A DNA stretch of 64,000 nt from a virus (taxonomy: Duplodnaviria > Heunggongvirae > Uroviricota > Caudoviricetes), in IMG/VR virus record IMGVR_UViG_2703718833_000007, positions 6,191 through 70,190 of that record. One strand, 5' to 3'. Numbering within the stretch: position 1 is the first letter of the stretch; the number at the start of each line of letters is the position of its first letter. Below the pieces are notes generated by a model, which was given only the letters and a program-made list of their open reading frames with translations, ran no database searches and was not told the origin of the DNA. Below are positions 603 through 51,430 of this stretch, piece after piece. The position numbers were made by a program, and so were the translations under genes.

Positions 603-1655
603 TCAAATAGCGCCTGCGCGTGTATCGCGTAGCGTTTTTGGTTTAAGCAGGAAATCAAGTGTCGCAGTGAAGCCATCGCCGAAGTAAAAGTCCGAAGCCT
701 TGATCTTGAACGCTTCAAAGTAGGCGATAAAGCCGTTAATGCTTTTGTCTTTCAGGTAGTCAGTGAACGCATAGATCTTACGTTCCAAATCCCGATCCAG
801 TTCAGCAGGTGGCAACAGGCCATCAAACGTGATGTTAAACTCATTAACCACATCGGCAGCGTTTACAGTAGATGACAGCTTGCGCCATTGTTCAGCGTCA
901 GCCAGATACCCATCGAATTTAGTTACCCGGCAAATGTTGATAGGCTTAGGTGTTCCGCCACGGCTACGCCATTGCGTTAAAGCCCACTCAATCACTAATG
1001 TGATCTCATCCTCCGTATACGCTTTGCGTGTTTTTGTTTCTGTCAGTAGTTCGATGAATGGCTTAGCATCACGACATTTGCATCCTGCCTTGTCGTTGTA
1101 GAATGCCAGGCAACGCAATGCAGCATCGCTTATCTGATAGTCACTATCCTGATTGACTTCTTTTCTTTTTATATTTTTCTTTTCTTCTTCTGTTTCTTTT
1201 TCTTCTTCTAATTCTATTTCTAATTCATGACCCTTTCCTGACCCGGTCATGACCATATCATGACCTTTTGTTGTTGGATTGATTAACTTCTCTAATTTTA
1301 ATTGCTCCTTAGCTGTGTTTATGGCTGCCCTGTATGCGCTTTTAGAAGTCATTGATTGGTCCAGCCTTTTCAATAACTTTAAACAAGTTATGTGGCCTTG
1401 AGAGCATTCGAATAAACCAATTTCGATAAAGTATTTCATCATTTCTTCTATGCGTTTTTCAGTCGATCCGACGTTTCGCGCGATGATTCTGGCGTCATGT
1501 CGTAGGTCAAATGTAAGGTTGTGCTGATCTACGTCATAAGTTATCAGTTCTAGGCAATACCAATAAAGCCCGTAGCCTTCCAGGCCATAATCTAATAAAA
1601 CGTTTTGAAGTTTTTCATCGCGGTTCGCATCGCTATCATGCTTAAACCACTTCAT
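603..1655 (-). CDS. Phage replication initiation / replisome organiser protein (DUF4373, Lin1244-like N-terminal domain)
   Basis: Track ORF 350 aa; N-terminus MKWFKHDSDANRDEKLQNVLLDYGLEGYGLYWYCLELI typical of this family; acidic/Lys-rich linker; adjacent to immunity region. Confidence 0.6.
   Translation of the reverse strand: MKWFKHDSDANRDEKLQNVLLDYGLEGYGLYWYCLELITYDVDQHNLTFDLRHDARIIARNVGSTEKRIEEMMKYFIEIGLFECSQGHITCLKLLKRLDQSMTSKSAYRAAINTAKEQLKLEKLINPTTKGHDMVMTGSGKGHELEIELEEEKETEEEKKNIKRKEVNQDSDYQISDAALRCLAFYNDKAGCKCRDAKPFIELLTETKTRKAYTEDEITLVIEWALTQWRSRGGTPKPINICRVTKFDGYLADAEQWRKLSSTVNAADVVNEFNITFDGLLPPAELDRDLERKIYAFTDYLKDKSINGFIAYFEAFKIKASDFYFGDGFTATLDFLLKPKTLRDTRAGAI
1150..1230. other. 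Candidate replication origin (AT-rich pyrimidine tract with TTCTAATTC direct repeats inside replication gene linker)
   Basis: ttcttttctttttatatttttcttttcttcttc...ttctaattctatttctaattc encodes the EEEKETEEEKK linker; analogous to lambda ori inside gene O. Confidence 0.3.
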
Positions 1656-1658
1656 AGA

Positions 1659-1916
1659 TCATTCCTCCGGCAACATCACTACATAGACATCACTGAATGC
1701 ATCAAGACGACAAACAAATCCTTTATCCATTAATGCGGCGAATGCATCATGTACCGTATGAACAGGAAGTTCACACATTGCGGCTACTTCTTTGCGTGAT
1801 GCATCATGTACCCGTCCTTTGTTATCTGCCTTTTCAGCCAGAGCCATTAAGACAAGTTTTTGAATCGGGCTGTTAAGTTTTACGTTCCATGCTTTGCTAA
1901 TAATGTTCATGCTCAT
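1659..1916 (-). CDS. Winged-HTH DNA-binding protein, first gene of leftward early operon (Cro-position regulator or origin-binding helper)
   Basis: Track ORF 85 aa; strong AGGAGA SD; HTH-like KLVLMALAEKADNKGRVHDASRKEVAAMCELPVHTV. Confidence 0.5.
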   Translation of the reverse strand: MSMNIISKAWNVKLNSPIQKLVLMALAEKADNKGRVHDASRKEVAAMCELPVHTVHDAFAALMDKGFVCRLDAFSDVYVVMLPEE

Positions 1917-2222
1917 TGTATTTTCTCCTATGGTTAAAATGAACGCGCTGGCGGGTATCCCATTAGCATTAGATAGCAGTGACTGACCGCTGAACAGATC
2001 CCGCCGTTGCGTGATATTTGTTTTTCGCTTCGCAGCGACACCGGATTTTTAAAGAGCTTTTAAGGTATGTGCCTTTTGTGCTTTCCATTATCTTTTTTCT
2101 TGCATCCTTGCAAGTATGGCCTTACCTTGTCTGCAAGTTTACAGAATGGCGTTAACAGGTCAAGGATTGAAAATTACATTTTGTGACTTGCATCAAATTT
2201 TTTTAGGTTATAGGGTAGCGAC
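1917..2222. promoter_or_regulatory. Divergent immunity control region (PR-like / PRM-like promoters, putative operators)
   Basis: 306-bp gap between divergent wHTH gene and repressor gene; repeated CTTGCA(A/T)G palindromic motifs near 2097-2195; minus-strand TTGCAA-17-TAATGG promoter-like element. Confidence 0.45.
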
Positions 2223-2870
2223 ATGAAAACAAAATGGTATGACTTAGCGAAACAACTCATGCGGGCGCAGGGTATGAGTCAGGATTCATTGGCAGATCTC
2301 ATGGGGATCACAAAAGGCGGCTTGTCACACTGGCTTAACGGTCGCCGCGAGCCGAATCTTGAAGACATTGCGCGGATCATGCGGGCGCTTGGGCGTCGGC
2401 AATTCACTGTTACACATGATGGAATGGTCATTGATGATTCTGTTTCTAACACGTTGCCGGGAGCGCCACCGCGTGATTTAGGCAGTTACCCGGTTGTTGA
2501 CTGGAAGGATGTAGTAAACAATATGGAAGATGCAAGGCGATCAACATTACCACACGTTACGACTAGCGTTATTTGTTCAGATGATAGTTACTGGCTGGTA
2601 GCTAAAGGCGAATCAATGAACGCGCCGCAAGGATTGAGTATACCAGCGGGGACGATGATACTTGTCGATCCGCACGCGCCAGCTATTGATGGCAAACTGG
2701 TTATAGCCCAATTGGAGGAGGGGCAGATACCGACGTTTAAACAGTTGATTATTGATGGAGGCAGAAAACTTTTGCGTTCACTGAATCCGTTGTATCCGCC
2801 AATCCCTATGAATCCAGAATCTAAAATCATAGGCGTGGTAGTGGATGCGAAGATCGTAAACCTGCCATAA
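2223..2870 (+). CDS. CI-like prophage repressor (HTH_XRE + LexA-like S24 peptidase domain)
   Basis: Track ORF 215 aa; N-terminal HTH (SQDSLADLMGITKGGLSHWLNGRREP); C-terminal GESM Ser motif and FKQL Lys motif as in LexA/lambda CI. Confidence 0.8.
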   Translation: MKTKWYDLAKQLMRAQGMSQDSLADLMGITKGGLSHWLNGRREPNLEDIARIMRALGRRQFTVTHDGMVIDDSVSNTLPGAPPRDLGSYPVVDWKDVVNNMEDARRSTLPHVTTSVICSDDSYWLVAKGESMNAPQGLSIPAGTMILVDPHAPAIDGKLVIAQLEEGQIPTFKQLIIDGGRKLLRSLNPLYPPIPMNPESKIIGVVVDAKIVNLP

Positions 2871-2876
2871 ACATTA

Positions 2877-2900
2877 GCCGCCTGGTGGCGGCTTTTCTTT
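2877..2900 (+). terminator. Rho-independent terminator after repressor gene
   Basis: gccgcc-tggt-ggcggc stem-loop followed by ttttcttt. Confidence 0.6.
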
Positions 2901-2993
2901 GCCATAAAAACACCAAAACGTAAACAGAAAACGTTATTTATTGTTTAAATATCAATGACATATAAAATATTTTAAAAAAGTATACAAAATGGA

Positions 2994-3022
2994 TTGACTC
3001 GGTGTTTTACGTGGCGTATATT
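2994..3022 (+). promoter_or_regulatory. Sigma70 promoter (PL analogue) for rightward early operon
   Basis: TTGACT - 17 nt - TATATT preceded by AT-rich UP-like tract. Confidence 0.5.
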
Positions 3023-3063
3023 GCGAGTCAAAGGAGGAAGCAAGGCAGGGAAAGAAGGTTACT

Positions 3064-3101
3064 TGCTCTTTAACAATCTGGTCAGCCGCTGGAAGTGCGG
3101 C
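3064..3101 (+). promoter_or_regulatory. nut-like site: rrn-type boxA (TGCTCTTTAACAA) plus boxB-like hairpin
   Basis: Exact 13-nt boxA consensus, then 8-nt spacer and GCCGC-UGGAAGU-GCGGC hairpin, between promoter and N-like gene. Confidence 0.5.
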
Positions 3102-3156
3102 AATTAACGAAGATGATTTTTATTAAGTATCATCAAGGATATAAGGAGATCAGATC

Positions 3157-3447
3157 ATGACCGTTACAATCATGTATGGCAAATGTGATAGCAAAATAAA
3201 CGCCAGGGAACGCAGAAGAATAAAAAGAGAAAACGAAAGAAAATCATCACCTGCAATTAATAAAACAGACAATGTGGATAAAGCTATTCGCTTTGCAAAC
3301 GAGGAAAGATGCAAACCAAATAGCATTAAAGAACGTCGCAAAGGAGCAGTAAAATGGTATACGGAAAATGAAAGCGGCAACTACTACCACGCAACGCAAC
3401 CACGCCAGTTAGGGGAAAAACCCCTTGATAAAGTCCGTTACCATTAA
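3157..3447 (+). CDS. N-like transcription antiterminator (P22 gp24 / lambda N analogue)
   Basis: Track ORF 96 aa; strong AAGGAG SD; N-terminal MTVTIMYGK and arginine-rich motif ARERRRIKRENERK; immediately downstream of nut-like site. Confidence 0.65.
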   Translation: MTVTIMYGKCDSKINARERRRIKRENERKSSPAINKTDNVDKAIRFANEERCKPNSIKERRKGAVKWYTENESGNYYHATQPRQLGEKPLDKVRYH

Positions 3448-3477
3448 TACAAAATGTAAATAATCGGAGGTGACATT

Positions 3478-3600
3478 ATGGTTATTCAGGCGCTCCAATT
3501 CAAACTGGCGGTAGCGGAAATGCTTCATGATGCCGAAATGTGGAGCGCCGCGAATAAAGCCTTGTATGTAGTGTTAACAGCGAAGGAGATCAAAGAGTGA
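3478..3600 (+). CDS. Hypothetical protein (40 aa)
   Basis: Own translation MVIQALQFKLAVAEMLHDAEMWSAANKALYVVLTAKEIKE; GGAGGTGA SD; stop overlaps erf start. Confidence 0.35.
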   Translation: MVIQALQFKLAVAEMLHDAEMWSAANKALYVVLTAKEIKE

Positions 3601-4250
3601 AAACAGAGTTACACAAAAAACTGTGGACGATTCAGCAAACGCTGAACGCGCCTAAAAATCAGCGTAATAATTTCGGCGGGTATAATTACAGATCAGCGGA
3701 GGATATTTTAGAAGCGGTTAAACCACTGCTTCAAAATATCACGCTGACTGTTAGTGATGAAATTGTCCTGATCGGCAATCGCTATTACGTGAAAGCAACG
3801 GCGACGCTAAGCGACGGTGAAGATGAAATAGCGGTAACGGCTTACGCCAGGGAGGAAGAAAGCAAGAAGGGAATGGACGCAAGCCAGCTAACAGGAGCAA
3901 CATCAAGTTACGCGCGGAAATATGCTTTGAACGGATTGTTCTGCATTGACGACGCCCGCGATCCTGATACTGACGCATACGCGAAGCAGACAGGCCAGCA
4001 GCCACGCCAGCAGAAAAATACGCCAAAACAGCAACCTAATCAGAAACCACAGCAGCAGAAAGCGCCGCCAAATCCTGATGAGGTGTTAGCACGTTTTTGT
4101 GATGCGGCAGCGAAAGCGCAGGACGAAAAAACACTAAGGGAAATATTCGGTAAATGTTGGAAGCTGTTACCTGAAAATTCAGAGCAACGGCAGAAAGCGC
4201 AAGATTGTTACCAGATCCGTAAGGATGAACTGAATGGAACAATTAACTAA
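3597..4250 (+). CDS. erf: Erf-family single-strand annealing recombination protein
   Basis: Track ORF 217 aa (GTG start); LNAPKNQRNNFGGYNYRSAEDILEAVKPLL and GATSSYARKYALNGLF closely match remembered P22 Erf. Confidence 0.85.
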   Translation: MKTELHKKLWTIQQTLNAPKNQRNNFGGYNYRSAEDILEAVKPLLQNITLTVSDEIVLIGNRYYVKATATLSDGEDEIAVTAYAREEESKKGMDASQLTGATSSYARKYALNGLFCIDDARDPDTDAYAKQTGQQPRQQKNTPKQQPNQKPQQQKAPPNPDEVLARFCDAAAKAQDEKTLREIFGKCWKLLPENSEQRQKAQDCYQIRKDELNGTIN

Positions 4251-4830
4251 AAAATGCACAAAATGCGGCAGAATCCTGCCGCTTAACTCTTTCCTGAAGC
4301 ACAAATCATGCAAATACGGCGTAGCTGGTACATGTAAGGATTGCGCAAAGGTATACAGGGAAGCCAATAAAGACAAAATAGCCGAGCAAAATAGAAGATG
4401 GAGGGAAAAACACAAGGAAGAAATTCGAGAAAAGGATAGAAAATACTACGAAGAACACAAAGAAGAATGTAATAAGCGAGCGAAAGAGTATCGTAAAAAT
4501 AACAAAGAAAAAATATTGGAAAAGAAAAATAATTGGGTAAGAAGAAACGAGGAAAGGTTAAAGGAGTATAGGAGACAATACCACGAAGATTATAAAGAAA
4601 GAAATAAGGCGGAACTAAAGGCAAGAACAAAACTAAGCAACGCCATTAGAGATGGTAAAGTATTAAGGCCAAATAAATGTGATAGGTGCGGGAAAAAGTG
4701 CACTCCTGATGGGCATCATTGGAATTATGCATATCCGCTAAATGTTGTTTGGTTATGCCGTTCTTGTCATAAGATAGTGCATTTTAAGTTTGGGTGTATA
4801 CACGAAAACATTAACGGGGAGATCGGTTAA
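4234..4830 (+). CDS. HNH-motif zinc-ribbon protein (putative HNH endonuclease)
   Basis: Track ORF 198 aa; N-terminal CxxC...CxxC, K/E/R-rich middle, C-terminal CDRCGKKCTPDGHHWNYAYPLNVVWLCRSCHKIVH. Confidence 0.5.
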   Translation: MEQLTKKCTKCGRILPLNSFLKHKSCKYGVAGTCKDCAKVYREANKDKIAEQNRRWREKHKEEIREKDRKYYEEHKEECNKRAKEYRKNNKEKILEKKNNWVRRNEERLKEYRRQYHEDYKERNKAELKARTKLSNAIRDGKVLRPNKCDRCGKKCTPDGHHWNYAYPLNVVWLCRSCHKIVHFKFGCIHENINGEIG

Positions 4831-5234
4831 TGAGCTTAAATTTAATCACACTTGGCGGTAATATTGGGAATGATATGAAAGTTCGCTACACGCAAAACGG
4901 GAAGGCGATTGGTAGTTTTTCGTTAGCTGTAACGAATGGATACGGTGATAATAAACGGACAATGTGGATCACTTGTCTGGTATTTGGCGAGCGTGCGGAA
5001 AAATTAGCGCCACATATCCGCAAGGGCGGGAAAATAGTGGTAAGCGGTCGCCTGGACGTTCGGCAATATGACTGGAACGACGGCACGAAGGGGACTGCGG
5101 TAGAAGTGGCGGTTAATGAGTTCGAATTTTGCAGCAGAAACGATCAGCAACCACAGCAACAGCAGCAACAGCAGAATAATGGCGGTGGATATGAAGAGCC
5201 GCCAATGGATTTTGATGATTCAATTCCTTTTTAA
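4830..5234 (+). CDS. ssb: Single-stranded DNA-binding protein
   Basis: Track ORF 134 aa; OB-fold-like N-terminus, Gln-rich linker, acidic C-terminal tail DFDDSIPF. Confidence 0.9.
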   Translation: MSLNLITLGGNIGNDMKVRYTQNGKAIGSFSLAVTNGYGDNKRTMWITCLVFGERAEKLAPHIRKGGKIVVSGRLDVRQYDWNDGTKGTAVEVAVNEFEFCSRNDQQPQQQQQQQNNGGGYEEPPMDFDDSIPF

Positions 5235-5249
5235 ATCAATAGGTTAGCG

Positions 5250-5528
5250 ATGGTCGATTATTTAAAACCGCCACCGCCACCGCGAACAAAAGAGCAAGTA
5301 TTAAAAGAAGCCCGTGATCAAATCGATCATGGGCTTTTTTTATGTGGCACGGCAGCGGAACGGATGGCAAAAAGATTCAGTGACCTGTACGCAAAACAAA
5401 TATGGTTCGACAACTGGCAGGCAAGTTTTTATCCACTGCAAAGAAAACCGGATATGCACTGGCCTGAATATGTCGATCCGCGTATGCGCAAATATCGCGG
5501 GCGTATGGGCCAGGTCATTAACGATTAA
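5250..5528 (+). CDS. Hypothetical protein
   Basis: Track ORF 92 aa, + strand, packed with neighbours; no family recognised. Confidence 0.4.
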   Translation: MVDYLKPPPPPRTKEQVLKEARDQIDHGLFLCGTAAERMAKRFSDLYAKQIWFDNWQASFYPLQRKPDMHWPEYVDPRMRKYRGRMGQVIND

Positions 5529-5767
5529 TGAGGTATCAAATCATGATCGAAGAAAAAGAAGTTGATAAGGAAATGCCTGACACAGCAGATGACTACGTTA
5601 CTTTTGATGGCGGCCTGTATGAGTTCGATACGTCGGCTGGGTGGACGGATAAGTGGCCTCTTCCTACTCGCCAGGAATTAATGGCGCGCAAATCATTCGG
5701 CGAAGATGCGGAACGCCTTGCCAATAACAAATGGCTTGATAAGTTCATTGCGGAGGGTGGCAAATGA
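5528..5767 (+). CDS. Hypothetical protein (start uncertain, possibly 5543)
   Basis: Track ORF 79 aa; stop overlaps next ATG. Confidence 0.35.
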   Translation: MRYQIMIEEKEVDKEMPDTADDYVTFDGGLYEFDTSAGWTDKWPLPTRQELMARKSFGEDAERLANNKWLDKFIAEGGK

Positions 5768-5877
5768 ACCTTGCAAAAATTGCCGCATTGCTTGCGGCTT
5801 TGTCTATCGCTGTGCTGTATCTCAGTGTATCGCTTTATATCACGGTAGCGATCATTAAACTCATTACTAACATGTGA
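5764..5877 (+). CDS. Small hydrophobic peptide (37 aa)
   Basis: Own translation MNLAKIAALLAALSIAVLYLSVSLYITVAIIKLITNM; ATGA overlap with upstream stop. Confidence 0.35.
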   Translation: MNLAKIAALLAALSIAVLYLSVSLYITVAIIKLITNM

Positions 5878-5885
5878 GGTTAATC

Positions 5886-6005
5886 ATGAAAGTCGGTAAG
5901 GATATTGTAACGGTCGCGTTTTGCATTATTTGCTTCCTGTTTGTGGTTGTGTTTTGTGGCGGATTTGCTGCGTTGGTTAGCCTTATTTTTAGGGGGTTGC
6001 TGTAA
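5886..6005 (+). CDS. Small hydrophobic peptide (39 aa)
   Basis: Own translation MKVGKDIVTVAFCIICFLFVVVFCGGFAALVSLIFRGLL; GAGG SD; stop overlaps next ATG. Confidence 0.35.
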   Translation: MKVGKDIVTVAFCIICFLFVVVFCGGFAALVSLIFRGLL

Positions 6006-6277
6006 TGAAAACATGGGATGCAAAGGCTGGCGATCTTGTTGTATTGCCTGAATATCGTGATGACCCTGGCATGGTTGTGCTGAATAAGACGTATAACGAT
6101 TTTGAGCGCCCACTATTGGTTAAATATCTGGACGGAGAAATCATAGAACCGCGCTACTTTGATGAGATTGAACTAAAGGCACGCAATGTCCGCGTTAAGC
6201 CGTTCCGGGCTTATGTTGAAGACCACTGGCGTAAATTGTTCGCCGGACTGAATGGGATGTACGGCGTATGGCTATAA
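6005..6277 (+). CDS. Hypothetical protein
   Basis: Track ORF 90 aa, packed in operon. Confidence 0.4.
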   Translation: MKTWDAKAGDLVVLPEYRDDPGMVVLNKTYNDFERPLLVKYLDGEIIEPRYFDEIELKARNVRVKPFRAYVEDHWRKLFAGLNGMYGVWL

Positions 6278-6468
6278 AATTAGTGAAAGTTAAACACCTG
6301 AAAGGCGGTGAGACGATCCGCGCGTGGTATGGATACGAATTTACTGTATCTGCATTTTATTTCGGTCCTGGTGGTCAGGTGACACTATTTGACGAAGATT
6401 TATGCGAGGTTGGGCAATGGCATCTTGAACAATATGTTGAGGTGTTAAATGAAAATCAAGTTTTATAA
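6268..6468 (+). CDS. Hypothetical protein
   Basis: Track ORF 66 aa, overlaps neighbours by a few nt. Confidence 0.35.
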   Translation: MAIKLVKVKHLKGGETIRAWYGYEFTVSAFYFGPGGQVTLFDEDLCEVGQWHLEQYVEVLNENQVL

Positions 6469-6781
6469 AAGTTATGATTCAGCTACTAACAAGCTATCAC
6501 TATTTATTGAGTTCGAACGCCGGATCGTGGTTGTTCCTTATTCTCGGCGCTTTAATGATGCAGCAGGGCGGCGACAGTTCGCGTTAGATATGTTGTTACG
6601 CGGTTGCGGCCTTATGCGCCCGCTATCTGATTTAAAACGGATGATGCCTGGATCGTTCGGTCAGATTGATGAAATAGAAATAAGTCAGGAAGAACTAAAA
6701 CGGGCGCGTGATTTATTCCTTTCAAGCGAAGGAAACCAGTTTAATCCAGAAACTGAAATGAAATGGCATCACCCACTATAA
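6449..6781 (+). CDS. Hypothetical protein
   Basis: Track ORF 110 aa. Confidence 0.4.
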   Translation: MKIKFYKSYDSATNKLSLFIEFERRIVVVPYSRRFNDAAGRRQFALDMLLRGCGLMRPLSDLKRMMPGSFGQIDEIEISQEELKRARDLFLSSEGNQFNPETEMKWHHPL

Positions 6782-6794
6782 AAGGATAAATATC

Positions 6795-7415
6795 ATGAAC
6801 GACATCAAAACAGCTTATTCACTCGGCAGCGAAGGCATGTTAATCACTCGCTACACTGAAGACGCAAGTTTTCATGAAGTAGAAATTAAAGATTATCACG
6901 AAGTATTGAAAGATATGGAAGCTGGCAAGTATGACGCTGATTTGAATCTGGCGTTACAGATTGTTGATATTGTGATGGATGCAAACATCCGCGATTATGT
7001 GTCTTTAAGTGCGGAAGAAAAAACATCGGTAGCTCGCTATGTCTTCTGTCTTGCTTTCGTAAAACGCATGGAAGAGGAATATGGGCGCGTACCAGTGCCG
7101 GAAGAGATTGACCCGCTTGCGTTCGGAAGCGCTGTTATCTTCCCGCTTGATGAAAACCGTATGGGAAGCATTGCGCTGTATTCTATGCGTGGCATGATGA
7201 AAAAACTCTTTGAAGTTAAGGTGATGCAGAAATGTATTGATGAAGGCCACAAAGAGGAAGAAATAAAATTTTTCATGCCATTGTTTTACGGTGAAATGGT
7301 CGGAAATGATATGCGTGCAAATGATCTAGGTGTACAGGCGGCTATTGCGGTGCTTAATGATGCACGGAAAAATTCACAGCCAATGCCGGAACCGGAAAAA
7401 CGTGTACTGCATTAA
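6795..7415 (+). CDS. Hypothetical protein
   Basis: Track ORF 206 aa; no family recognised. Confidence 0.45.
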   Translation: MNDIKTAYSLGSEGMLITRYTEDASFHEVEIKDYHEVLKDMEAGKYDADLNLALQIVDIVMDANIRDYVSLSAEEKTSVARYVFCLAFVKRMEEEYGRVPVPEEIDPLAFGSAVIFPLDENRMGSIALYSMRGMMKKLFEVKVMQKCIDEGHKEEEIKFFMPLFYGEMVGNDMRANDLGVQAAIAVLNDARKNSQPMPEPEKRVLH

Positions 7416-7512
7416 CAGCGTGATTGCGATCACATGAACATACATTTTGTGTTGTGATTGCATATCCGTTTTGTAAACTTAAATTAAAGGTTTACATCGC
7501 GGAGGAAAGTAA

Positions 7513-7732
7513 GATGGAACGTGAATACATGCTTTATTGCGTTGAGGGTGGCGTAGGTAGCGATGCCTACGTCGCCGGGAAAAGCTATCCAGCAGATGAA
7601 GTGCTTTCTAATATGCACTTCCGTGAAAATGAAAACCAGGTGTCTGTGTGGAAGCGATGCGTTGATGGTATTGAAGTCGTTAGCCTTGAAAGATATTTGG
7701 GTAAATTCGACTACGGATTAATTGAGGCTTAA
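7513..7732 (+). CDS. Hypothetical protein (73 aa from MEREYML)
   Basis: Track ORF 7424-7732 trimmed to internal ATG preceded by GGAGGAAAG SD. Confidence 0.35.
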
Positions 7733-7830
7733 CTATGGACGAATCATTGCTATTCATGTGCATTTGCTGGGGTTTTATTGCCTTATGCCTGTTTATCAGG
7801 TGGTTTATTGAATACCACATGAGGTGATAT

Positions 7831-8025
7831 ATGGAACAGAAAACTGATTATAGAATACCTGACAACCTGAAATTGGTTGGTATTGGTTTTGGTTGTCGTT
7901 TTGTATCTGACGTAAACGGGGCTATTTATTTAGTGCGCATCATTGATGGCGTTCAGCATATAAGAAGGCTAGGACTTTATATCAAAGCATTCAGGAGAGG
8001 TTATTTGAAAACTCATGAAATTTAA
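7831..8025 (+). CDS. Hypothetical protein
   Basis: Track ORF 64 aa. Confidence 0.3.
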   Translation: MEQKTDYRIPDNLKLVGIGFGCRFVSDVNGAIYLVRIIDGVQHIRRLGLYIKAFRRGYLKTHEI

Positions 8026-8218
8026 ACAGTATAAAGAATGGAAGATTCCAGAAGAAGCAACAAAGGCAGCGCCAGGAAGTTTTTCTGGCGTTTACTTTTA
8101 TATGGGTGGTAAATGGTATTTCGGCAGCAGGCCGGATCACTATTATCAAGAAGTATGCAAATCTCACACCTGGGATATTAATGAACGCGTGCAAGGTGGT
8201 GTAATAGACGAGGTTTAA
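8015..8218 (+). CDS. Hypothetical protein
   Basis: Track ORF 67 aa. Confidence 0.3.
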   Translation: MKFKQYKEWKIPEEATKAAPGSFSGVYFYMGGKWYFGSRPDHYYQEVCKSHTWDINERVQGGVIDEV

Positions 8219-8219
8219 A

Positions 8220-8456
8220 ATGGTTAGGGCTTTTTTAAAGTGGTTAGGTGAGTGGCTTTTGGCTACGCTTTTCGTTTTTTTGACGTTCATTGCAGTAATG
8301 ATCATCTTTCTTCTTTCCATGATGTTCCTTACATGGTCAGTACCAGAGTTTATGGATATTGGTAAGGTTCTTGATTTCGCTCGTGCTTTGTTGCTTTGTA
8401 GTGCATTTATTGGTTTTTGCAGGACTGTTTCGCCTGATTGGGATGATGAATGGTGA
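8220..8456 (+). CDS. Hypothetical membrane protein (2 predicted TM helices)
   Basis: Track ORF 78 aa, hydrophobic segments LLATLFVFLTFIAVMIIFLLSMMFL and ALLLCSAFIGF. Confidence 0.35.
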   Translation: MVRAFLKWLGEWLLATLFVFLTFIAVMIIFLLSMMFLTWSVPEFMDIGKVLDFARALLLCSAFIGFCRTVSPDWDDEW

Positions 8457-8460
8457 TCCT

Positions 8461-8694
8461 ATGGCCTTGTTCAATATGTCAGAGCCGCAATTTAACGCCG
8501 TAAAGACTGCCGCCCGCGCAGCGCTTTCGGCCTGCAAAGCGGAAGTAGAGAAAAACGGCTACAGCGATAAAGCTACGCGGCTGATATTAGAAAAGCATTA
8601 TCGCAAGGTCGCCCCACTAATCAGCATTGAGCGCTTTGTGTGGTTGGTGGGGTATTTAAACAACCGTTGGGGAACGGAACAGGATTATTTCTAA
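8461..8694 (+). CDS. Hypothetical protein
   Basis: Track ORF 8359-8694 trimmed to ATG after upstream stop. Confidence 0.3.
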   Translation: MALFNMSEPQFNAVKTAARAALSACKAEVEKNGYSDKATRLILEKHYRKVAPLISIERFVWLVGYLNNRWGTEQDYF

Positions 8695-8703
8695 GGGGGC
8701 GTA

Positions 8704-9243
8704 ATGAAAAATGATTTTGGAGGCAGCCACACTCCTAAGGAAATTAAAGATCTATGGCAGACGCCTAAACCAGTTTTCAGAGGAATGGATCGGGAATTTG
8801 AATTCGTCGCGGATGTGGCGGCAAACAAGGCAAACGCGCTAGTTCCGCGATATATAACCGAAGAAATGGACACGTTGCATTATCCGTGGGGAGCGGTGGC
8901 AATGCCTGGCGAGTATGTCTGGCTTAATCCGCCATATTCTAAACCGGGGCCATTCGTTGAGAAGGCGGCATTAGAACATCAACGAAATCACATTGGCTGT
9001 GTAATGCTGTTGCCCGCTGACATTTCTGTTAGCTGGTTCATGAACGGCGTGGAGACGGCAAACGAATGCCGATTAATCACGCGCGGGCGTCTGGCGTTTA
9101 TCAATGCTGAGACAGGGAAACCAGCAAGCGGAAACAACAAAGGCAGCTTGTTTTTGATCTGGCATCCACGGTGCAGACATGAATGTATTTTTACGCAGAT
9201 AACACGTAAAGAGCTATATGCAAGAGGTGCAGATAATGACTAG
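8704..9243 (+). CDS. Phage DNA N6-adenine methyltransferase (Dam-like, orphan)
   Basis: Track ORF 179 aa with catalytic NPPY motif (WLNPPYSKPGPF); no adjacent restriction gene. Confidence 0.8.
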   Translation: MKNDFGGSHTPKEIKDLWQTPKPVFRGMDREFEFVADVAANKANALVPRYITEEMDTLHYPWGAVAMPGEYVWLNPPYSKPGPFVEKAALEHQRNHIGCVMLLPADISVSWFMNGVETANECRLITRGRLAFINAETGKPASGNNKGSLFLIWHPRCRHECIFTQITRKELYARGADND

Positions 9244-9664
9244 TGCGGCAGATTTACTACGAATCGCAGCGGAAACAATAGAGCAAAGGGGTAAACAAAA
9301 CGGATACGACAGAAAAGAGGAAAAATCAGCGCCAAAAATAGCCACTATTTACAACGCTAAGAAGGGTACAAATTTAACCCCGCTTGATGTATGGGATCTG
9401 TTGATTTGTCTCAAGGAGGCGCGTTTAGAGGCCATTTTGGTAAATGGTTCTGACCCTACTGATACTTTGGTTGACTTGATTAGCTACAGCGCACTAAAAG
9501 CTGAGCAGATATTAAGCGATCATGAGGAAGAGCAAAAGAAAAAACAGTTCACTGCTCTTAATCCTCAATGTGGTTGTATTTCAACTCGGCTTGATTTGAG
9601 TTTTGACAGATCTGAAGCTATTCGCGATAAGAGGTATGACCCAAATGAAAAAGGTGGCAATTGA
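9236..9664 (+). CDS. Hypothetical protein
   Basis: Track ORF 9218-9664 trimmed to ATG (MTSAADLL) overlapping Dam stop. Confidence 0.4.
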   Translation: MTSAADLLRIAAETIEQRGKQNGYDRKEEKSAPKIATIYNAKKGTNLTPLDVWDLLICLKEARLEAILVNGSDPTDTLVDLISYSALKAEQILSDHEEEQKKKQFTALNPQCGCISTRLDLSFDRSEAIRDKRYDPNEKGGN

Positions 9665-10148
9665 CAGGTTATTAGCCTGCGTTTATGTCGCCGTTTTCGT
9701 GATCATCAACCTTATTGTTAACCATTGCGGCCCGTGGGTAATTCCGATCACCACGGTAGCCGCTGTGTGTGTCAATATGATGATCCGTGACTTCTTGCTG
9801 TATGACGGCGGCTTGAAATGGTCTGCTACAACATGCGCCGCCGCTGGCGCAATCACGGTAATGATAAATTACGATGCTGGAATGGTAGCGATCGCGTCAT
9901 TCGTTGCGGTTGTTTCCGGTGCGCTTATATCTGGAGGTGTTTACCGGGTTTTGCCTGGTGATTTCGATTCTAAGCGCTGGCCTGCAAACATAGCTTCAGC
10001 CATCGGGGATGCGTTAATTTTCCCGACGCTATCGTTTATGGCGTTTATGCCGGAAATATCAGCGATGCAGTTTATCTCAAAAATGGCAGCGGTAACGGTG
10101 ATCACTATCATCATGCGCCGCTATTTCACGTTTGAGGGTAGAAAATGA
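9645..10148 (+). CDS. Multi-pass inner-membrane protein, possibly VUT/YhhQ-like (queuosine-precursor transporter family)
   Basis: Track ORF 9603-10148, start taken at MKKVAIDRLL with AAGAGG SD; 4-5 hydrophobic segments; family assignment from loose pattern resemblance only. Confidence 0.35.
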   Translation: MKKVAIDRLLACVYVAVFVIINLIVNHCGPWVIPITTVAAVCVNMMIRDFLLYDGGLKWSATTCAAAGAITVMINYDAGMVAIASFVAVVSGALISGGVYRVLPGDFDSKRWPANIASAIGDALIFPTLSFMAFMPEISAMQFISKMAAVTVITIIMRRYFTFEGRK

Positions 10149-10672
10149 ATTGGGATGATTATTTTATATACAATCCGGACACAGGTAAGTTGTACTGGAA
10201 ATATAGAAATGACATAGAAGAATCAAGGCGTAAACAATGGAATGCGTGTAATGCTGGTCATGAGGTTGGACATATTGGCGGAAGCGGTGGGTGTCTTAAT
10301 ACAGCGCTTACCGTTGGCGGAAAGCGTTATAATTTAAAAGTACATAGAATATGTTACGAGATGTACTATGGGCCAATACCTGAAGGTAAGGAGGTTGATC
10401 ATATAAATCACGTTAAAACAGATAATCGAGCCGTCAATCTTGGATTAAAAGACCATAAAGATAATATGCGCAACATGTCTTTAATGGTAAACAATACCAG
10501 TGGGTGCGCTGGTATCCATAAAAATAAACATGGTAAATGGGTTGTTAGAATCGGTGGAGGCAAAAGAGGTAATAGAATTTATATAGGGTGTTTTTCTGAT
10601 ATCAATGACGCAATAAAAGCTAGGCGCGACGCTGAAAGAAAGTATGGCTATCATGAAAATCACGGCAAATAG
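10145..10672 (+). CDS. HNH homing endonuclease (HNH_3 + AP2-like DNA-binding domain), paralogue 1 of 4
   Basis: Track ORF 175 aa; INW-DYF start motif, GPIPEG-EVDHINH HNH core, C-terminal AP2-like (AGIHKNKHGKWVVRI). Confidence 0.85.
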   Translation: MNWDDYFIYNPDTGKLYWKYRNDIEESRRKQWNACNAGHEVGHIGGSGGCLNTALTVGGKRYNLKVHRICYEMYYGPIPEGKEVDHINHVKTDNRAVNLGLKDHKDNMRNMSLMVNNTSGCAGIHKNKHGKWVVRIGGGKRGNRIYIGCFSDINDAIKARRDAERKYGYHENHGK

Positions 10673-10869
10673 AACAACCACGCCACCGCCGCGCGGCTTT
10701 GCCCGTGCTGTATTCCTGGCTAACGACCGGGCCATCAATCGTGCTACGCTCAACCGCGTTTTACCGGACTGAAATTTACAAAATGGCGTCATTGCGTGAT
10801 GTGGATCACATAATGGCGCTTTTCACCTTGTTCTGACGTATCCGTTTTGTATACTTCAAACAAGCAAAA

Positions 10870-10902
10870 TGCTCTTTAAAAATCCGGCAGCGCTGAAATG
10901 CG
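10870..10902 (+). promoter_or_regulatory. Second boxA-like element (TGCTCTTTAAAAA) with weak downstream hairpin; possible nutR analogue
   Basis: boxA-like 10/13 match; only a 3-bp stem CGC-UGAAAU-GCG follows, so weaker than site at 3064. Confidence 0.25.
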
Positions 10903-10931
10903 TAGAAATCACCTGAAAAGGAGAGAGCATT

Positions 10932-11108
10932 ATGCCTTTTGATAATTACCAATGGCATGACGACTATGAACGAGAAAGCGTCATGCGTGCAATGTGCAAT
11001 GTATGCAGCACGAAGAAAGGAGACTGCAACGAGTGCAACGAATGTTTAGATCATTGGCTAAGGGCCGGACACGCCGAAAGGCGGAGCGAAACAGAAAATC
11101 AAAAATAA
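10932..11108 (+). CDS. NinF-like small Cys-rich protein (putative)
   Basis: Own translation MPFDNYQWHDDYERESVMRAMCNVCSTKKGDCNECNECLDHWL...; GGAGAGAG SD; directly upstream of ninG. Confidence 0.3.
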   Translation: MPFDNYQWHDDYERESVMRAMCNVCSTKKGDCNECNECLDHWLRAGHAERRSETENQK

Positions 11109-11122
11109 TCGGGGTGATTTTT

Positions 11123-11728
11123 ATGCAGAACCCTAAAAAACCCATAAGACGCCGTTGCAAATGCTGCGGCGTTTTTTTTGAACCTAAATATCACAATCAA
11201 ACGTGGTGCAGCGATGAATGTCTGGAAGAACTGAAGTTTGATCAGCTATGCCGCGATCGTGAAAAGGCTATGAAGGCTATGGAGCGGAAGAAACGCCGCG
11301 ATAGCCAGCGTGAGGAACGCAACCGGAAGCGGAAGCAGTTAAATCCGCGTAGTTATTGGTTAAAGCAGGCGCAAAACGTGTTTAACGCATATATTCGCGA
11401 ACGTGACGCAGGACAGCCGTGTATATCTTGCGGGACTTATTATTATGAGCAATGCGGAGCAGATGCGGGGCATTACAGGACGGTAGCAGCAGCTGGACAC
11501 CTTCGATTTAACGAGGATAACGTAAACCTACAATGTCGACATTGCAATCAGGTATTAGACGGAAACATAGAGGCATATCGTCCGGCACTGATTCGAAAAA
11601 TTGGCCTTGCCAGGGTGGAGGCGTTGGAGAACAACAACGAAACCCATAAATGGACGATCGAAGAATGCAAGGAGATCATTAAAGTTTACCAGGCGAAATT
11701 GGACGCCCTAAGGAGAAAGGCGGCATGA
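11123..11728 (+). CDS. ninG: NinG/Rap-family recombination-associated protein
   Basis: Track ORF 10994-11728 trimmed to MQNPKKPIRRRCKCCGVFFEP; Cys clusters and YRPALIRKIGL region typical of lambda NinG. Confidence 0.75.
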   Translation: MQNPKKPIRRRCKCCGVFFEPKYHNQTWCSDECLEELKFDQLCRDREKAMKAMERKKRRDSQREERNRKRKQLNPRSYWLKQAQNVFNAYIRERDAGQPCISCGTYYYEQCGADAGHYRTVAAAGHLRFNEDNVNLQCRHCNQVLDGNIEAYRPALIRKIGLARVEALENNNETHKWTIEECKEIIKVYQAKLDALRRKAA

Positions 11729-12132
11729 ATGAATATACATTTAGCCTACCTTACCCGCCATCGAATAATAGGTATTACCGGCATTCACGAGGTTTTCATT
11801 ATATCAGTAAAGTGGGGAAAGAATACCGGGAACAGGTAAGAGACATCATCGAGCTATTAAATTTAAACATCAACCTATCTTGCCGACTGGCAATTACCAT
11901 TCATGCCGCGCCGCCGGATAACCGGATAAGAGATCTGGATAATATCACCAAATGCCTTTTTGATAGCCTTACTTACGCCGGATTCTGGACCGACGACGGG
12001 CAGATCGATTCTATAAAAATTGTTCGCTGCCGGAAGGTAAAAGGCGGGCGCTTGTTTATTAAGATCCGCGAACGCGGCGACCTACTACCGGATATTGACG
12101 AATACGAGACTAATATGTGGGGTGAGCAATGA
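11725..12132 (+). CDS. rusA: RusA-family Holliday-junction resolvase
   Basis: Track ORF 135 aa; LPYPPSNNRYYR...GFHYISKVGKEYR and DLDNITKCLFDSL motifs. Confidence 0.85.
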   Translation: MNEYTFSLPYPPSNNRYYRHSRGFHYISKVGKEYREQVRDIIELLNLNINLSCRLAITIHAAPPDNRIRDLDNITKCLFDSLTYAGFWTDDGQIDSIKIVRCRKVKGGRLFIKIRERGDLLPDIDEYETNMWGEQ

Positions 12133-12311
12133 AAAACGAAGTTAAAGATCTGCAAATAGATATTCAGTGCGATGAGCATGATTTAGCTACAGTCAGAAAA
12201 ATCCAGGCTTTTCATATGCGAGAATTGCTTGCATTGAAAGAGCTTGAGAGGAAGTTAGTCCAGTCTATTTCTGATCGTAAACGCCTTATTGCTCGTTACG
12301 GGGGCAAATAA
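12129..12311 (+). CDS. Hypothetical protein
   Basis: Track ORF 60 aa between rusA and Q. Confidence 0.4.
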   Translation: MKNEVKDLQIDIQCDEHDLATVRKIQAFHMRELLALKELERKLVQSISDRKRLIARYGGK

Positions 12312-13033
12312 TGAATCTGGAGTCAATTCTTAAATTCCACTTCCCAAAATCACCGCATTTGTCAGATGAAAGTCGTGGCACGTCACCGGACGCGCTTAAT
12401 ACTACGGATGCGCTAACTGCCGCTGGTATGGCGCAATCGCGCGTAGAGCTTGGTTATAGCGCTTTTTTAGGGAAGATGGAACTATCACAAGCCGAAAAGC
12501 ACAGGGCCGTAGTTTTGCTTACAGAGCGTTTAAGAGCTATGGCAAAAGATTATAAATACGTTATGGAACTGGACGAGGTGCGACGAAATGATCTCATTAT
12601 TCTTGTTGCCGTTTTCGCATTTCGGGATTATTGCCAGAGTGCCGCGACGGAAAAAACTTGTATGGAGTGCGGCGGATATAAATTTACGTTTGACGAGTAT
12701 GGGGAAAAACACCTTTGCAAAAAATGCAAGGGGCATGGGAAAGTTCTTAATCATTGCAAACAATGCAAGGGCCGTGGAGAAGTGCCTGATAAAGCAGCCA
12801 GCGAAGCGGCGGAAATGCCCGTGTTCAAAACGTGCCAGCATTGCGGCGGGCGCGGGTACTCGCGTTTCCCTGTAGATCTTGTCCGGCAGGCGGTTAATCA
12901 GCTTGTCTTTCCTGTAAGCCGATCAACATGGTGGAAGAAATACCGTGCTTTCTATGAAGACGCCATTGCTGAATTGTTCAAAGAAGAGGCGCGGGCTGAT
13001 AACGAAATTAAACGAGTGACGCGGGGTGAATGA
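12311..13033 (+). CDS. Late-gene antiterminator Q (lambda Q family)
   Basis: Track ORF 240 aa; N-terminus MNLESILKFHFPKSPHLSDESRGTSPDALNTTDALTAAGMAQS and zinc-finger region closely parallel remembered lambda Q. Confidence 0.85.
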   Translation: MNLESILKFHFPKSPHLSDESRGTSPDALNTTDALTAAGMAQSRVELGYSAFLGKMELSQAEKHRAVVLLTERLRAMAKDYKYVMELDEVRRNDLIILVAVFAFRDYCQSAATEKTCMECGGYKFTFDEYGEKHLCKKCKGHGKVLNHCKQCKGRGEVPDKAASEAAEMPVFKTCQHCGGRGYSRFPVDLVRQAVNQLVFPVSRSTWWKKYRAFYEDAIAELFKEEARADNEIKRVTRGE

Positions 13034-47459: not shown

Positions 47460-48464
<1,005 letters not shown>

Positions 48465-48941
48465 CAAAAGCAATTTTTCCGGCTGTCTGTATACAAAAAC
48501 GCCGCAAAGTTTGAGCGAAGTCAATAAACTCTCTACCCATTCAGGGCAATATCTCTCTTGCAGGTGAATGCAACGTCAAGCGATGGGCGTTGCGCTCCAT
48601 ATTGTCTTACTTCCTTTTTTGAATTACTGCATAGCACAATTGATTCGTACGACGCCGACTTTGATGAGTCGGCTTTTTTTTGCCTGTTATTTATCAGCGT
48701 CTACCCTTTAAGAGTCCACCCAATGACCAGAGGGAAATATGACGACACTTATTTATTTGCAAATTCCTGTCCCTGAACCGATTCCTGGCGATCCTGTTCC
48801 AGTGCCCGATCCGATCCCTCGCCCGCAACCCATGCCTGACCCACCACCCGATGAAGAACCGATTAAATTGTCGCATCGTGAGCGTAGATCTGCGAGGATA
48901 CGCGCCTGCTAACTTTGCGTCGATGACCACGAGAATAGATT

Positions 48942-50315
48942 GTGACCGCTTTTTCTACCCTGAATGTTTTGCCTCCCGCCCAACTCACGAACCTTAATGA
49001 GTTGGGTTATTTAACCATGACGCCGGTGCAGGCCGCCGCGCTTCCGGCGATCCTTGCCGGAAAAGATGTTCGCGTGCAGGCGAAAACCGGCAGCGGCAAA
49101 ACGGCGGCTTTTGGCCTCGGCTTGTTACAGCAAATTGATGCGTCGCTATTTCAAACCCAGGCTTTAGTGCTGTGTCCTACGCGTGAACTGGCGGATCAGG
49201 TGGCAGGTGAATTGCGTCGGCTGGCGCGTTTTCTGCCAAATACCAAAATTTTGACGTTGTGCGGTGGTCAACCGTTCGGTATGCAGCGTGATTCGTTGCA
49301 ACATGCGCCGCATATTATCGTGGCAACGCCGGGGCGTTTGCTGGATCACCTGCAAAAAGGCACGGTATCACTGGATGCGTTGAATACGCTGGTGATGGAT
49401 GAGGCCGACCGCATGCTGGATATGGGATTTAGCGATGCCATTGATGATGTCATCCGTTTTGCGCCTGCATCTCGACAGACGCTTCTGTTTTCGGCAACCT
49501 GGCCGGAAGCCATCGCTGCAATCAGCGGACGAGTGCAACGCGATCCTTTGGCGATTGAAATTGACTCAACAGATGCTTTGCCACCCATTGAACAACAATT
49601 TTATGAGACATCCAGCAAAGGCAAAATTCCTCTGTTGCAACGGTTATTAAGCTTGCATCAGCCATCCTCTTGCGTGGTGTTTTGCAATACCAAAAAAGAT
49701 TGCCAGGCTGTCTGCGACGCGCTGAATGAAGTAGGGCAAAGTGCATTGTCATTACACGGCGATTTGGAGCAACGCGATCGCGATCAGACCCTGGTACGTT
49801 TTGCTAACGGTAGCGCCCGTGTACTGGTCGCGACTGATGTTGCTGCGCGTGGTCTGGATATTAAATCGCTTGAGCTGGTGGTGAACTTTGAGCTGGCGTG
49901 GGACCCTGAAGTTCATGTACATCGCATCGGTCGTACAGCTCGTGCAGGAAATAGCGGTCTGGCGATCAGTTTCTGTGCTCCGGAAGAAGCACAGCGGGCC
50001 AATATCATTTCTGACATGTTGCAGATAAAACTTAACTGGCAAACGCCGCCAGCTAATAGTTCCATTGCGACGCTGGAAGCAGAAATGGCAACGTTGTGTA
50101 TCGATGGCGGGAAAAAAGCCAAAATGCGCCCGGGTGATGTATTAGGTGCACTGACAGGAGATATCGGGCTTGATGGCGCAGATATTGGCAAAATCGCCGT
50201 GCATCCGGCGCATGTCTATGTCGCGGTCCGTCAGGCTGTTGCTCATAAAGCATGGAAACAGTTACAGGGCGGGAAGATTAAAGGAAAAACGTGCCGGGTG
50301 CGGTTATTAAAATAA
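48942..50315 (+). CDS. dbpA: ATP-dependent RNA helicase DbpA (DEAD-box), host gene
   Basis: Track ORF 457 aa; Walker A AKTGSGKT, DEAD box (VMDEAD), SAT, HRIGRTAR motifs. Confidence 0.95.
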   Translation: MTAFSTLNVLPPAQLTNLNELGYLTMTPVQAAALPAILAGKDVRVQAKTGSGKTAAFGLGLLQQIDASLFQTQALVLCPTRELADQVAGELRRLARFLPNTKILTLCGGQPFGMQRDSLQHAPHIIVATPGRLLDHLQKGTVSLDALNTLVMDEADRMLDMGFSDAIDDVIRFAPASRQTLLFSATWPEAIAAISGRVQRDPLAIEIDSTDALPPIEQQFYETSSKGKIPLLQRLLSLHQPSSCVVFCNTKKDCQAVCDALNEVGQSALSLHGDLEQRDRDQTLVRFANGSARVLVATDVAARGLDIKSLELVVNFELAWDPEVHVHRIGRTARAGNSGLAISFCAPEEAQRANIISDMLQIKLNWQTPPANSSIATLEAEMATLCIDGGKKAKMRPGDVLGALTGDIGLDGADIGKIAVHPAHVYVAVRQAVAHKAWKQLQGGKIKGKTCRVRLLK

Positions 50316-50335
50316 TGAAATGTTGAATTGCCGGG

Positions 50336-50432
50336 TGCAAGAGTAAACATCTTATTCGGGATTGCCGGATGCGACGCTGGCCGCGTCTTATCCGGCCTCC
50401 ATAAGAGTAGCCCGATACGCTTGCGCATCGGG
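50336..50432. repeat. REP/BIME-type repetitive extragenic palindromes between dbpA and ttcA
   Basis: tgccggatgcgacgctggccgcgtcttatccggcc and gcccgatacgcttgcgcatcgggc match the E. coli REP pattern. Confidence 0.7.
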
Positions 50433-50443
50433 CGCTATCCTGG

Positions 50444-51379: not shown

Positions 51380-51430
51380 TATTTCAGTTCTCTGGTACTA
51401 AATGGGGCAAATTGGGGGCAAACTTTGCAA

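Follow-up and report, generated by a model that had tools for sequence, protein, structure and literature searches.

An N/nut antitermination unit in a prophage of the mEp021 group

We analyzed a stretch of 64,000 nucleotides of a tailed-phage record (IMG/VR record IMGVR_UViG_2703718833_000007, positions 6,191 to 70,190), referred to here as the window and used as the coordinate system throughout. The subject of this study is a short segment of its plus strand (2994-3447) that contains a promoter, a boxA element, a boxB hairpin and an open reading frame (ORF) for a small arginine-rich protein (Table 1). A first-pass annotation, made from the sequence alone, had proposed that these elements form an antitermination unit like the N/nut systems of phages lambda and P22, and all four were recovered at the same positions and on the same strand. 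Directly upstream and in the same orientation lies a repressor gene, a homolog of gp15/Rep021 of phage mEp021, where it is annotated as 'putative repressor protein'. The intrinsic terminator that follows this gene is the counterpart of mEp021 TERM_1 (t1); both mEp021 and mEp554 have a terminator annotated in this location. The ORF is preceded by a ribosome binding site (RBS; AAGGAG, 3143-3148) located 8 nt 5' of the ATG.

The window carries an E. coli prophage of the mEp021 group (mEpimmI). The 601 nt at 2880-3480 show 92-97% identity to seven sequenced coliphages, the Escherichia phages mEp554, mEp013, mEp044, mEp515, mEp010, mEp021 and MagusPhagus, and the gene order matches that of the mEp021 group: int, leftward replication genes, repressor, gp17, erf, ssb and onwards to Q, the lysis genes and the structural genes. 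A recent study of the Gp17/nutR1-nutR2-nutL system of the mEpimmI group describes Gp17 as an experimentally characterized, lambda N-like early antiterminator of mEp021 that uses three sites, nutR1 located 5' of gp17, nutR2 located 3' of a methyltransferase gene and nutL located 5' of the repressor gene (Negrete-Mendez et al., 2025; PMC11893012). The same study lists terminators t1, t2 and t5 as shown by experiment and describes the phages of this group as Nus-dependent yet non-lambdoid. The ORF in the window is 97.9% identical (94 of 96 residues) to mEp021 Gp17 in tblastn, and a nutR1 site lies upstream of its own gene. The segment 2994-3447 is very probably the early antitermination unit (nutR1 plus gp17) of this prophage, and the first-pass annotation was right to see a coherent N/nut unit here. 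Because the 98% identical mEp021 counterpart has been characterized experimentally, the unit is already known, and the phage group was described in the years 2023-2025. The primary paper on mEp021 Gp17 and nut antitermination is reportedly that of Valencia-Toxqui et al. 2023 (Arch Virol 168:92).

Table 1. Predicted features of the window, in order of position.
Feature	Position	Strand	Sequence or description	Basis
Replication initiator-like gene	603-1655	leftward	opposite operon, behind nutL	
Replication initiator-like gene	1659-1916	leftward	opposite operon, behind nutL	
nutL	2025-2058	-	boxA AGCUCUUUAAAAA (2058-2046), spacer UCCGGUG, boxB UCGCU-GCGA-AGCGA (2038-2025)	
Leftward promoter	2163-2136	-	TTGACC-16-TAAACT, upstream of nutL	
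CI-like prophage repressor	2223-2870	+		Pfam HTH_3 (4.9e-13), Peptidase_S24 (1.4e-18)
Intrinsic terminator	2876-2893	+	AGCCGCC-TGGT-GGCGGCT then TTTTCTTT, 3' of repressor gene	terminator scan
Early promoter	2994-3022	+	TTGACT (2994-2999), 17-nt spacer, TATATT (3017-3022)	sigma-70-like scan
nutR1 boxA	3064-3076	+	TGCTCTTTAACAA	exact match to rrnG ugcucuuuaacaa; unique in window
nutR1 boxB hairpin	3085-3101	+	5-bp stem GCCGC/GCGGC, loop UGGAAGU	minimum-free-energy fold; stem covariation
gp17 homolog	3157-3447	+	96-aa predicted N-like antiterminator	mEp021 Gp17 identity, phrog_271, hhalign
Kil-like ORF	3478-3600	+	40 aa	Pfam Lambda_Kil (2.2e-4, below cut-off), phrog_2055 (1.3e-3)
Erf	3597-4250	+		
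SSB	4830-5234	+		
Intrinsic terminator	5782-5798	+	GCCGCATTGCTTGCGGC then TTTG	identical to mEp021 TERM_2 (t2)
Intrinsic terminator-like hairpin	8068-8092	+	hairpin and T-tract	position of mEp021 TERM_3
DNA methyltransferase (Dam-type)	8704-9243	+		
HNH endonuclease	10145-10672	+		
Terminator-like hairpin	10785-10823	+	long hairpin then TTTT, about 50 nt 5' of nutR2	sequence identity to mEp021 TERM_4
nutR2	10870-10903	+	boxA UGCUCUUUAAAAA (10870-10882), spacer UCCGGCA, boxB GCGC-UGAAAU-GCGU (10890-10903)	
NinG	10994-11728	+		
RusA	11725-12132	+		
Q-like late antiterminator	12311-13033	+		phrog_127 (1.5e-78)
Endolysin	17694-18311	+		
Rz	18810-19280	+		
Terminase	20810-22776	+	followed by portal gene	

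The gp17 homolog encodes a remote member of the N superfamily

The predicted protein begins with MTVTIMYGK and contains an arginine-rich motif (ARM), NARERRRIKRENERK, that spans residues 15-29 (ARERRRIKRENERK at residues 16-29). It is 94-98% identical to its homologs in the seven coliphages, and these mEp-type phages were the only ones to match in a tblastn search of 50,697 phage records (E <= 10), with no match among P22- or lambda-like phages. Eleven codons differ from mEp021 gp17 and, because nine of these changes are synonymous, the ORF appears to be under purifying selection. Invariant residues of the family alignment include N15, A16, R17, R20 and R24, the same as in the published work, in which arginines 17, 19, 20 and 24 of Gp17 are given as fully conserved (Negrete-Mendez et al., 2025); R17, R19, R20, R21 and R24 are all present in the window ORF. 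The C-terminal block formed by residues 67-96 is also strongly conserved (WY.ENESGNY.HATQPR.LGE.PLDKVRYH). Family searches returned no more than about 50 clusters, every one of them from E. coli or a gut metagenome, with identities down to 63%. A scan of the GTDB species-representative genomes gave no relative, so E. coli prophages, viral contigs and gut metagenomes are the only places in which the family occurs. Prophage copies were found in 35 of 5,426 complete E. coli genomes, and all of these are annotated in RefSeq as 'hypothetical protein'.

The first-pass annotation had compared the ORF with gp24, the N protein of P22, and the gp24 sequence that it gave proved to be accurate. In BLASTP the match to P22 gp24 covered 17 residues only (E = 0.028), and lambda N gave no similarity (E = 29). 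More distant relationships were recovered with profiles. The ORF matches phrog_271 ('anti-termination protein N-like') over residues 2-95 (E = 5.9e-11), and the same profile matches P22 gp24 (1.4e-38) and lambda N (2.5e-22). An hhalign comparison of the Gp17 family with 16 P22-type proteins gave 81% probability (E = 1.2e-5) over residues 2-56 and paired TVTIMYGK with TVITYGK, NARERR with NAKTRR and DNVDKAIRFA with IDRVTKAISLA. Sub-threshold matches to the Pfam family N_peptide (PF25694), in which P22 gp24 itself scores 149 bits, were obtained for 17 of 19 family members (best E = 4.8e-4), and the ORF had no match to Pfam N36 (PF11438) at E <= 0.1. When the ARMs are aligned by eye without gaps, DAQTRRRERR of lambda, NAKTRRHERR of P22 and NARERRRIKR of the window protein fall together, and the equivalent of lambda Trp18 is Ser31. 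There is a genuine but distant homology to P22 gp24, which is confined to roughly the first 56 residues. By the threshold that Pfam sets for the gp24 family the protein falls outside that family; these comparisons place it in the N superfamily as a remote member, with an N-terminal half that most resembles the P22 type and an unrelated C-terminal third.

The predicted early promoter and its position downstream of the repressor gene

The TTGACT-17-TATATT promoter scores 10/12, the top sigma-70-like match within 1500-12500. As sites of this type were not enriched in that region (15 found versus 24 expected from shuffles), the promoter call is based on position and conservation and not on the scan. 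Conservation was assessed in a set of 52 family loci, consisting of the window, three mEp-type phage records, four contigs found via diverged Gp17 homologs and 44 viral contigs, and the promoter hexamers are kept in 50 of them. The site at 2994-3022 is the predicted early promoter of the unit. It had been called PL-type, and the order of repressor, terminator, promoter, nut and N is indeed the order at PL of lambda and P22. The authors of the published study name the direction of gp17 'rightward' (Negrete-Mendez et al., 2025); the synteny, which continues into kil and erf, nonetheless mirrors PL of lambda and P22.

A 16-nt near-repeat, ACAAAATGG(T/A)(A/T)TGACT, is present at 2229-2244, overlapping the beginning of the repressor ORF, and at 2984-2999, overlapping the gp17 promoter at its -35 region. 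This repeat was the only element found in a search for operator repeats common to both promoter regions and is either operator-like or due to chance.

Three nut modules with a conserved boxB hairpin

The first-pass annotation had pointed out a perfect match of the boxA element to the rrn consensus. This is correct: TGCTCTTTAACAA represents the first 13 nt of the rrnG boxA-spacer RNA ugcucuuuaacaauuua (PMC2724277) and matches the consensus, UGCUCUUUA(ACAA), exactly over 13 nt. The core UGCUCUUUA occupies 3064-3072 and is followed by a 12-nt spacer, ACAAUCUGGUCA (3073-3084). The exact 12-mer GCTCTTTAACAA occurs a single time in the window. A boxA scan that allowed two mismatches gave 10 matches versus 7.0 expected, so only exact or near-exact copies are informative. 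A search for boxA-like sequences identified one-mismatch copies in nutL and nutR2, each followed by a hairpin at the same distance. The single nut described in the first-pass annotation corresponds to nutR1, and that description was incomplete: nutL and nutR2 are also present. The site nutL is flanked by the repressor gene and the leftward replication operon, matching the published position, and nutR2 is found directly upstream of ninG-rusA-Q. Both are identical in sequence to their mEp021 counterparts, and in mEp021 nutR2 is located between TERM_4 and ninF.

The proposed hairpin GCCGC-UGGAAGU-GCGGC is the minimum-free-energy fold of nutR1. Shuffled sequences reach a comparable folding energy (z = -0.26), and the single-hairpin energies at the nut sites are likewise indistinguishable from shuffles (z from -0.44 to +0.14). 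The evidence for the hairpins is therefore covariation and not stability. Since no U-tract follows any of the three hairpins, they are not intrinsic terminators. Among the 52 loci nutL is near-invariant, and the outer pair of nutR2 shows a double change from G.U to C-G in other loci. The most variable site is nutR1, with stems GCCGC/GCGGC, GCUAC/GUAGC, UCGC/GCGA, GCAC/GUGC and UGCAC/GUGCA. In an alignment of 16 distinct variants the three inner stem pairs are 97.9% paired, two of these three pairs show double changes, and the covariation score was reached by no shuffle. A covariance model built from this alignment scored nutR1 (3064-3111) at 53.9 bits, nutL at 56.9 bits and nutR2 at 60.5 bits, sites that match by construction; the next best score elsewhere in the 64 kb was only 9.8 bits. 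By this comparative evidence the boxB hairpin is a conserved structure and the window holds exactly three predicted nut modules, which are located where the published study puts the three nuts (Negrete-Mendez et al., 2025).

Two further structures in the leader were considered. An A/U-rich hairpin (GAUGAU-N11-AUCAUC, 3112-3134) between boxB and the gp17 RBS is kept in mEp021 and might act in processing or translation within the leader of the N-like gene. A long-range pairing between boxA and the purine-rich leader (3034-3071) was rejected, as long-leader relatives split the two segments by 216 nt and alter their sequence.

The boxA allele is linked to leader length and the boxB loops differ

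In 38 of the 52 family loci, as in mEp021, an insertion of about 216 nt, annotated as gp16 (37 aa), separates the promoter from nutR1 (4170-4385 in locus L001, corresponding to mEp021 12000-12210). The window is without this insertion between 3050 and 3051. The insertion folds somewhat better than shuffles (z = -2.0), and an Rfam scan at gathering thresholds of the whole window and the mEp021 leader assigned neither the nut region nor the insertion to an RNA family. The perfect boxA 13-mer is present in nine of the 52 loci. These are nine of the 12 loci with a short leader, the window and mEp554 among them, versus none of the 38 with a long leader, for which the usual boxA, mEp021 included, is CGCTCATTAACAA. 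A perfect rrn-type boxA is therefore no hallmark of the family; it belongs to a minority allele that is linked to the short leader. The allele is not new either, as it is present in the sequenced and published phage mEp554.

The three boxB hairpins, all of which one Gp17 must read, share the 5' half CGCUG with boxB of P22 nutL (GCGCUGACAAAGCGC) and differ in their loops, which are UGGAAGU in nutR1, UGAAAU in nutR2 and UGCGAA in nutL. For the nutR1 loop there are two readings, a GGAAG pentaloop closed by U.U and a GGAA tetraloop closed by U.G with a bulged U; the loop of nutL reads as U-GCGA-A and that of nutR2 as U-GAAA-U. All three would thus be readable as GNRA-type loops behind a U.U, U.G or U-A closure. 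From one Gp17 subtype to another, the nutR1 loop and the C-terminal half of the ARM vary in step. In the loci of diverged subtypes (L005, L006, L007 and L052; 63-75% identity) the nutR1 loop is UGAAAU or UGAAAA and the C-terminal half of the ARM is MKRAAEQ or LKRAGKV versus IKRENERK, with nutL and nutR2 unchanged. One could imagine that nutR1 is specialized, either for translational autoregulation of gp17 or for a partly Gp17-independent, rrn-like loading of Nus factors by which the alleles would time early expression differently, and that the ARM reads true GNRA tetraloops with non-canonical U.U/U.G closure, unlike the mode of lambda and P22. We regard this combination as rather unlikely.

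A model for early transcription of the prophage

The sequence elements, their conservation, the stem covariation, the N-family homology and the gene order were observed directly. Gp17-dependent antitermination at three nuts and dependence on Nus factors are taken from the literature on the 98% identical protein (Negrete-Mendez et al., 2025). With the CI-like repressor inactive, transcription would start from the promoter at 2994-3022, and the nascent RNA would present nutR1 first and then the coding sequence of the N-like protein. By analogy with N of lambda and P22, the N-terminal ARM (N15-K29) would bind boxB, host NusB/NusE would assemble on boxA, and NusA and NusG would join. The RNA-tethered complex would make RNA polymerase resist downstream terminators, for which those at 5782, 8068 and 10785 are plausible, presumed targets; the choice among them follows from the same analogy. 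The last of these was missed by a simple terminator scan because its loop is too long. Transcription would then reach ninG-rusA-Q, with nutR2 reloading the complex just upstream, and nutL would load the complex for the leftward replication operon. Subsequently Q would switch on the lysis and structural genes.

A same-strand run from the N-like gene into nin, Q, lysis and structural genes, unlike lambda, had been noted in the first-pass annotation and holds by gene order. Its description as an 'N-driven' operon fits the early genes up to Q, the gene that we infer to be the downstream end of the early operon opened by gp17, but not the late genes, which are most likely Q-dependent and not directly driven by N. 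Directly 5' of nutR2 and 3' of the TERM_4-like hairpin lies a candidate promoter (TTGTTC-16-TATACT, 10829-10856) that is kept in mEp021. If it is active, nutR2 would serve a transcript of its own and not only the nutR1 transcript.

Evaluation of alternative explanations

Several points weigh against this model. The score of the protein against Pfam N_peptide was 16.9 bits (E = 0.0096), below the cut-off of 27.9, and single-sequence and family-profile searches of the PDB gave no N peptide and no chain of an N-containing transcription antitermination complex (N-TAC). The boxB loop of nutR1 has 7 nt and is not the GNRA-like pentaloop with U-A closure of lambda and P22, and the three boxB loops differ from one another. 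For the window copy itself the evidence is sequence comparison, and the functional data come from mEp021 Gp17. The published nutR1 was equated with 3064-3101 from its described position and reported variability, not base by base, and the supplements of the study are without nut sequences (Negrete-Mendez et al., 2025).

Three other explanations were weighed, which even jointly are improbable. The exact 13-nt match to the rrnG boxA-spacer raises the question whether boxA alone acts as a host-only antiterminator with NusB, NusE, NusA and NusG, the hairpin and the ORF being irrelevant to read-through, and it is known that the rrn boxA-spacer suffices against Rho-dependent terminators and that a consensus boxA enhances N activity (PMC2724277). 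However, the 43 of 52 loci without the perfect boxA all keep hairpin and ORF, the hairpin stem covaries, the downstream terminators are intrinsic and Gp17 dependence has been reported for mEp021 (Negrete-Mendez et al., 2025), all of which make this explanation very unlikely. Even less probable is that the ORF encodes some other small basic regulator, DNA-binding or translation-regulating, with N-like features that are a compositional coincidence. The arginine-rich stretch is of low complexity, the 17-residue BLASTP match to P22 gp24, the missing one to lambda N and the sub-threshold Pfam score would fit such a protein, and so would the RefSeq label of the prophage copies. Against this, the phrog_271 match covers nearly the whole protein, hhalign pairs three motifs (TVxIxYGK, NA[KR]xRR and DxVxKAI) that extend beyond the basic patch, the ORF follows directly after boxA-boxB and a repressor-controlled early promoter as in lambda and P22, and the function of the 98% identical protein has been published (Negrete-Mendez et al., 2025).

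We give the least credence to the idea that the hairpin at 3085-3101 serves chiefly in translation or processing of the downstream ORF, for instance as an autoregulatory operator or an RNase III site, instead of in antitermination. N of lambda represses its own translation via nutL. The hairpin lies in the 5' leader of the ORF itself, 55 nt 5' of the ATG, the second conserved hairpin at 3112-3134 separates it from the RBS, and changes in its loop go with changes in the C-terminal half of the ARM, which is not so for nutL and nutR2. Such a role is nevertheless compatible with nut function and not exclusive of it; moreover, the hairpin starts 12 nt after boxA, a P22-like distance also seen at nutL and nutR2, and nutR1 has been reported to be a functional nut (Negrete-Mendez et al., 2025). 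The N/nut reading of the segment remains the one that we prefer.

Surroundings of the unit

The Kil-like ORF is located directly 3' of gp17, which is the position of kil in the PL operon of P22. Downstream of the SSB gene many small ORFs are found on the plus strand. In complete family prophages the opposite operon also carries DnaB, NinB and integrase genes. Three ORFs of the HNH endonuclease type (4234-4830, 10145-10672 and 18301-18822) are located between erf and ssb, 5' of nutR2 in place of the mEp021 cytosine methyltransferase gene, and between the endolysin and Rz genes, respectively. Two of them match phrog_99; the third, rich in Cys and with a CxxC...H motif, gave no confident family match. 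All three resemble insertions of homing endonucleases and set this prophage apart from mEp021.

On its right side (47481-53165) the window consists of E. coli chromosome and not of mEp-type prophage. Rfam identified the small RNA FnrS (48560-48677) and the antitoxin small RNA RalA (52987-53165) in this part, and ORFs of 327, 457, 311 and 411 aa are presumably zntB, dbpA, ttcA and the Rac integrase gene intR. Because this part reads as E. coli chromosome, the mEp-type prophage ends near 47.0-47.4 kb, where it adjoins a Rac-like prophage. The integrase at 51431-52666 was rejected as part of the mEp-type prophage, since it is located past host FnrS, adjacent to RalA, and since family prophages have their integrase at the opposite end.

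Significance and comparison with known systems

The unit is a textbook-style N/nut module and its significance beyond annotation is small. The 35 RefSeq prophage copies labelled 'hypothetical protein' could be renamed, and annotations for the three nut sites and the terminators can be added to this prophage. The comparison of boxB variants provides a set of natural compensatory mutants for the study of a P22-like ARM on a non-pentaloop boxB.

Among known systems the closest is mEp021, with which the window shares the promoter, the boxB hairpin, the RBS and the flanking genes, and from which nutL, nutR2 and terminator t2 do not differ at all. It departs from mEp021 in being without the gp16 leader insertion, in having boxA TGCTCTTTAACAA instead of CGCTCATTAACAA, and in HNH genes that replace or interrupt some accessory genes, for example the one at 10145-10672 for the cytosine methyltransferase gene.

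Similarity to P22 is seen in the N-terminal protein motifs (MTVxIxYGK, NA(K/R)xRR, DxVxKAI), in a boxA with a CUUUA core, an 11-12-nt spacer and the 5' half CGCUG of boxB (window nutR1 GCTCTTTAACAATCTG versus P22 nutR GCTCTTTACCAATCTG), and in the operon synteny N, kil, erf, abc2. In contrast to P22 gp24, the C-terminal 40 residues of the window protein are unrelated and its score is 16.9 bits versus a gathering score of 27.9. The loops UGGAAGU, UGAAAU and UGCGAA differ from the P22 pentaloop GACAA closed by U-A, there are three nuts versus two, and the operon runs into nin-Q-late instead of xis-int.

With lambda the window shares the layout of repressor gene, terminator, early promoter, boxA-spacer-boxB and N gene, an ARM that aligns without gaps and the same PHROG; Nus dependence has been reported for the phage group (Negrete-Mendez et al., 2025). 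The boxA of lambda, CGCUCUUA, is without the extra U, and the window protein has no aromatic residue at the equivalent of Trp18 (residue 31 is Ser). In lambda and P22 boxB is a 5-bp stem with a GNRA-like pentaloop and U-A closure (GAAAA/GAAGA in lambda, GACAA in P22); nutR1 of the window has the 5-bp stem and a loop that allows the two readings given above. Compared with the rrn operons, boxA and the first four spacer bases are identical to those of rrnG (UGCUCUUUAACAA). The window element is, however, phage-encoded, coupled to an N-like protein and followed by a conserved, covarying boxB, whereas boxB precedes boxA in rrn. In rrn an upstream CAC enhances NusA binding; this CAC is absent from the window, which has ACT.

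In the window the N-like gene is on the operon that leads to Q and the replication genes are on the opposite operon, unlike in lambda. Compared with both lambda and P22, the prophage joins an N-kil-recombination segment to a nin-Q-late segment and carries replication on the other arm.

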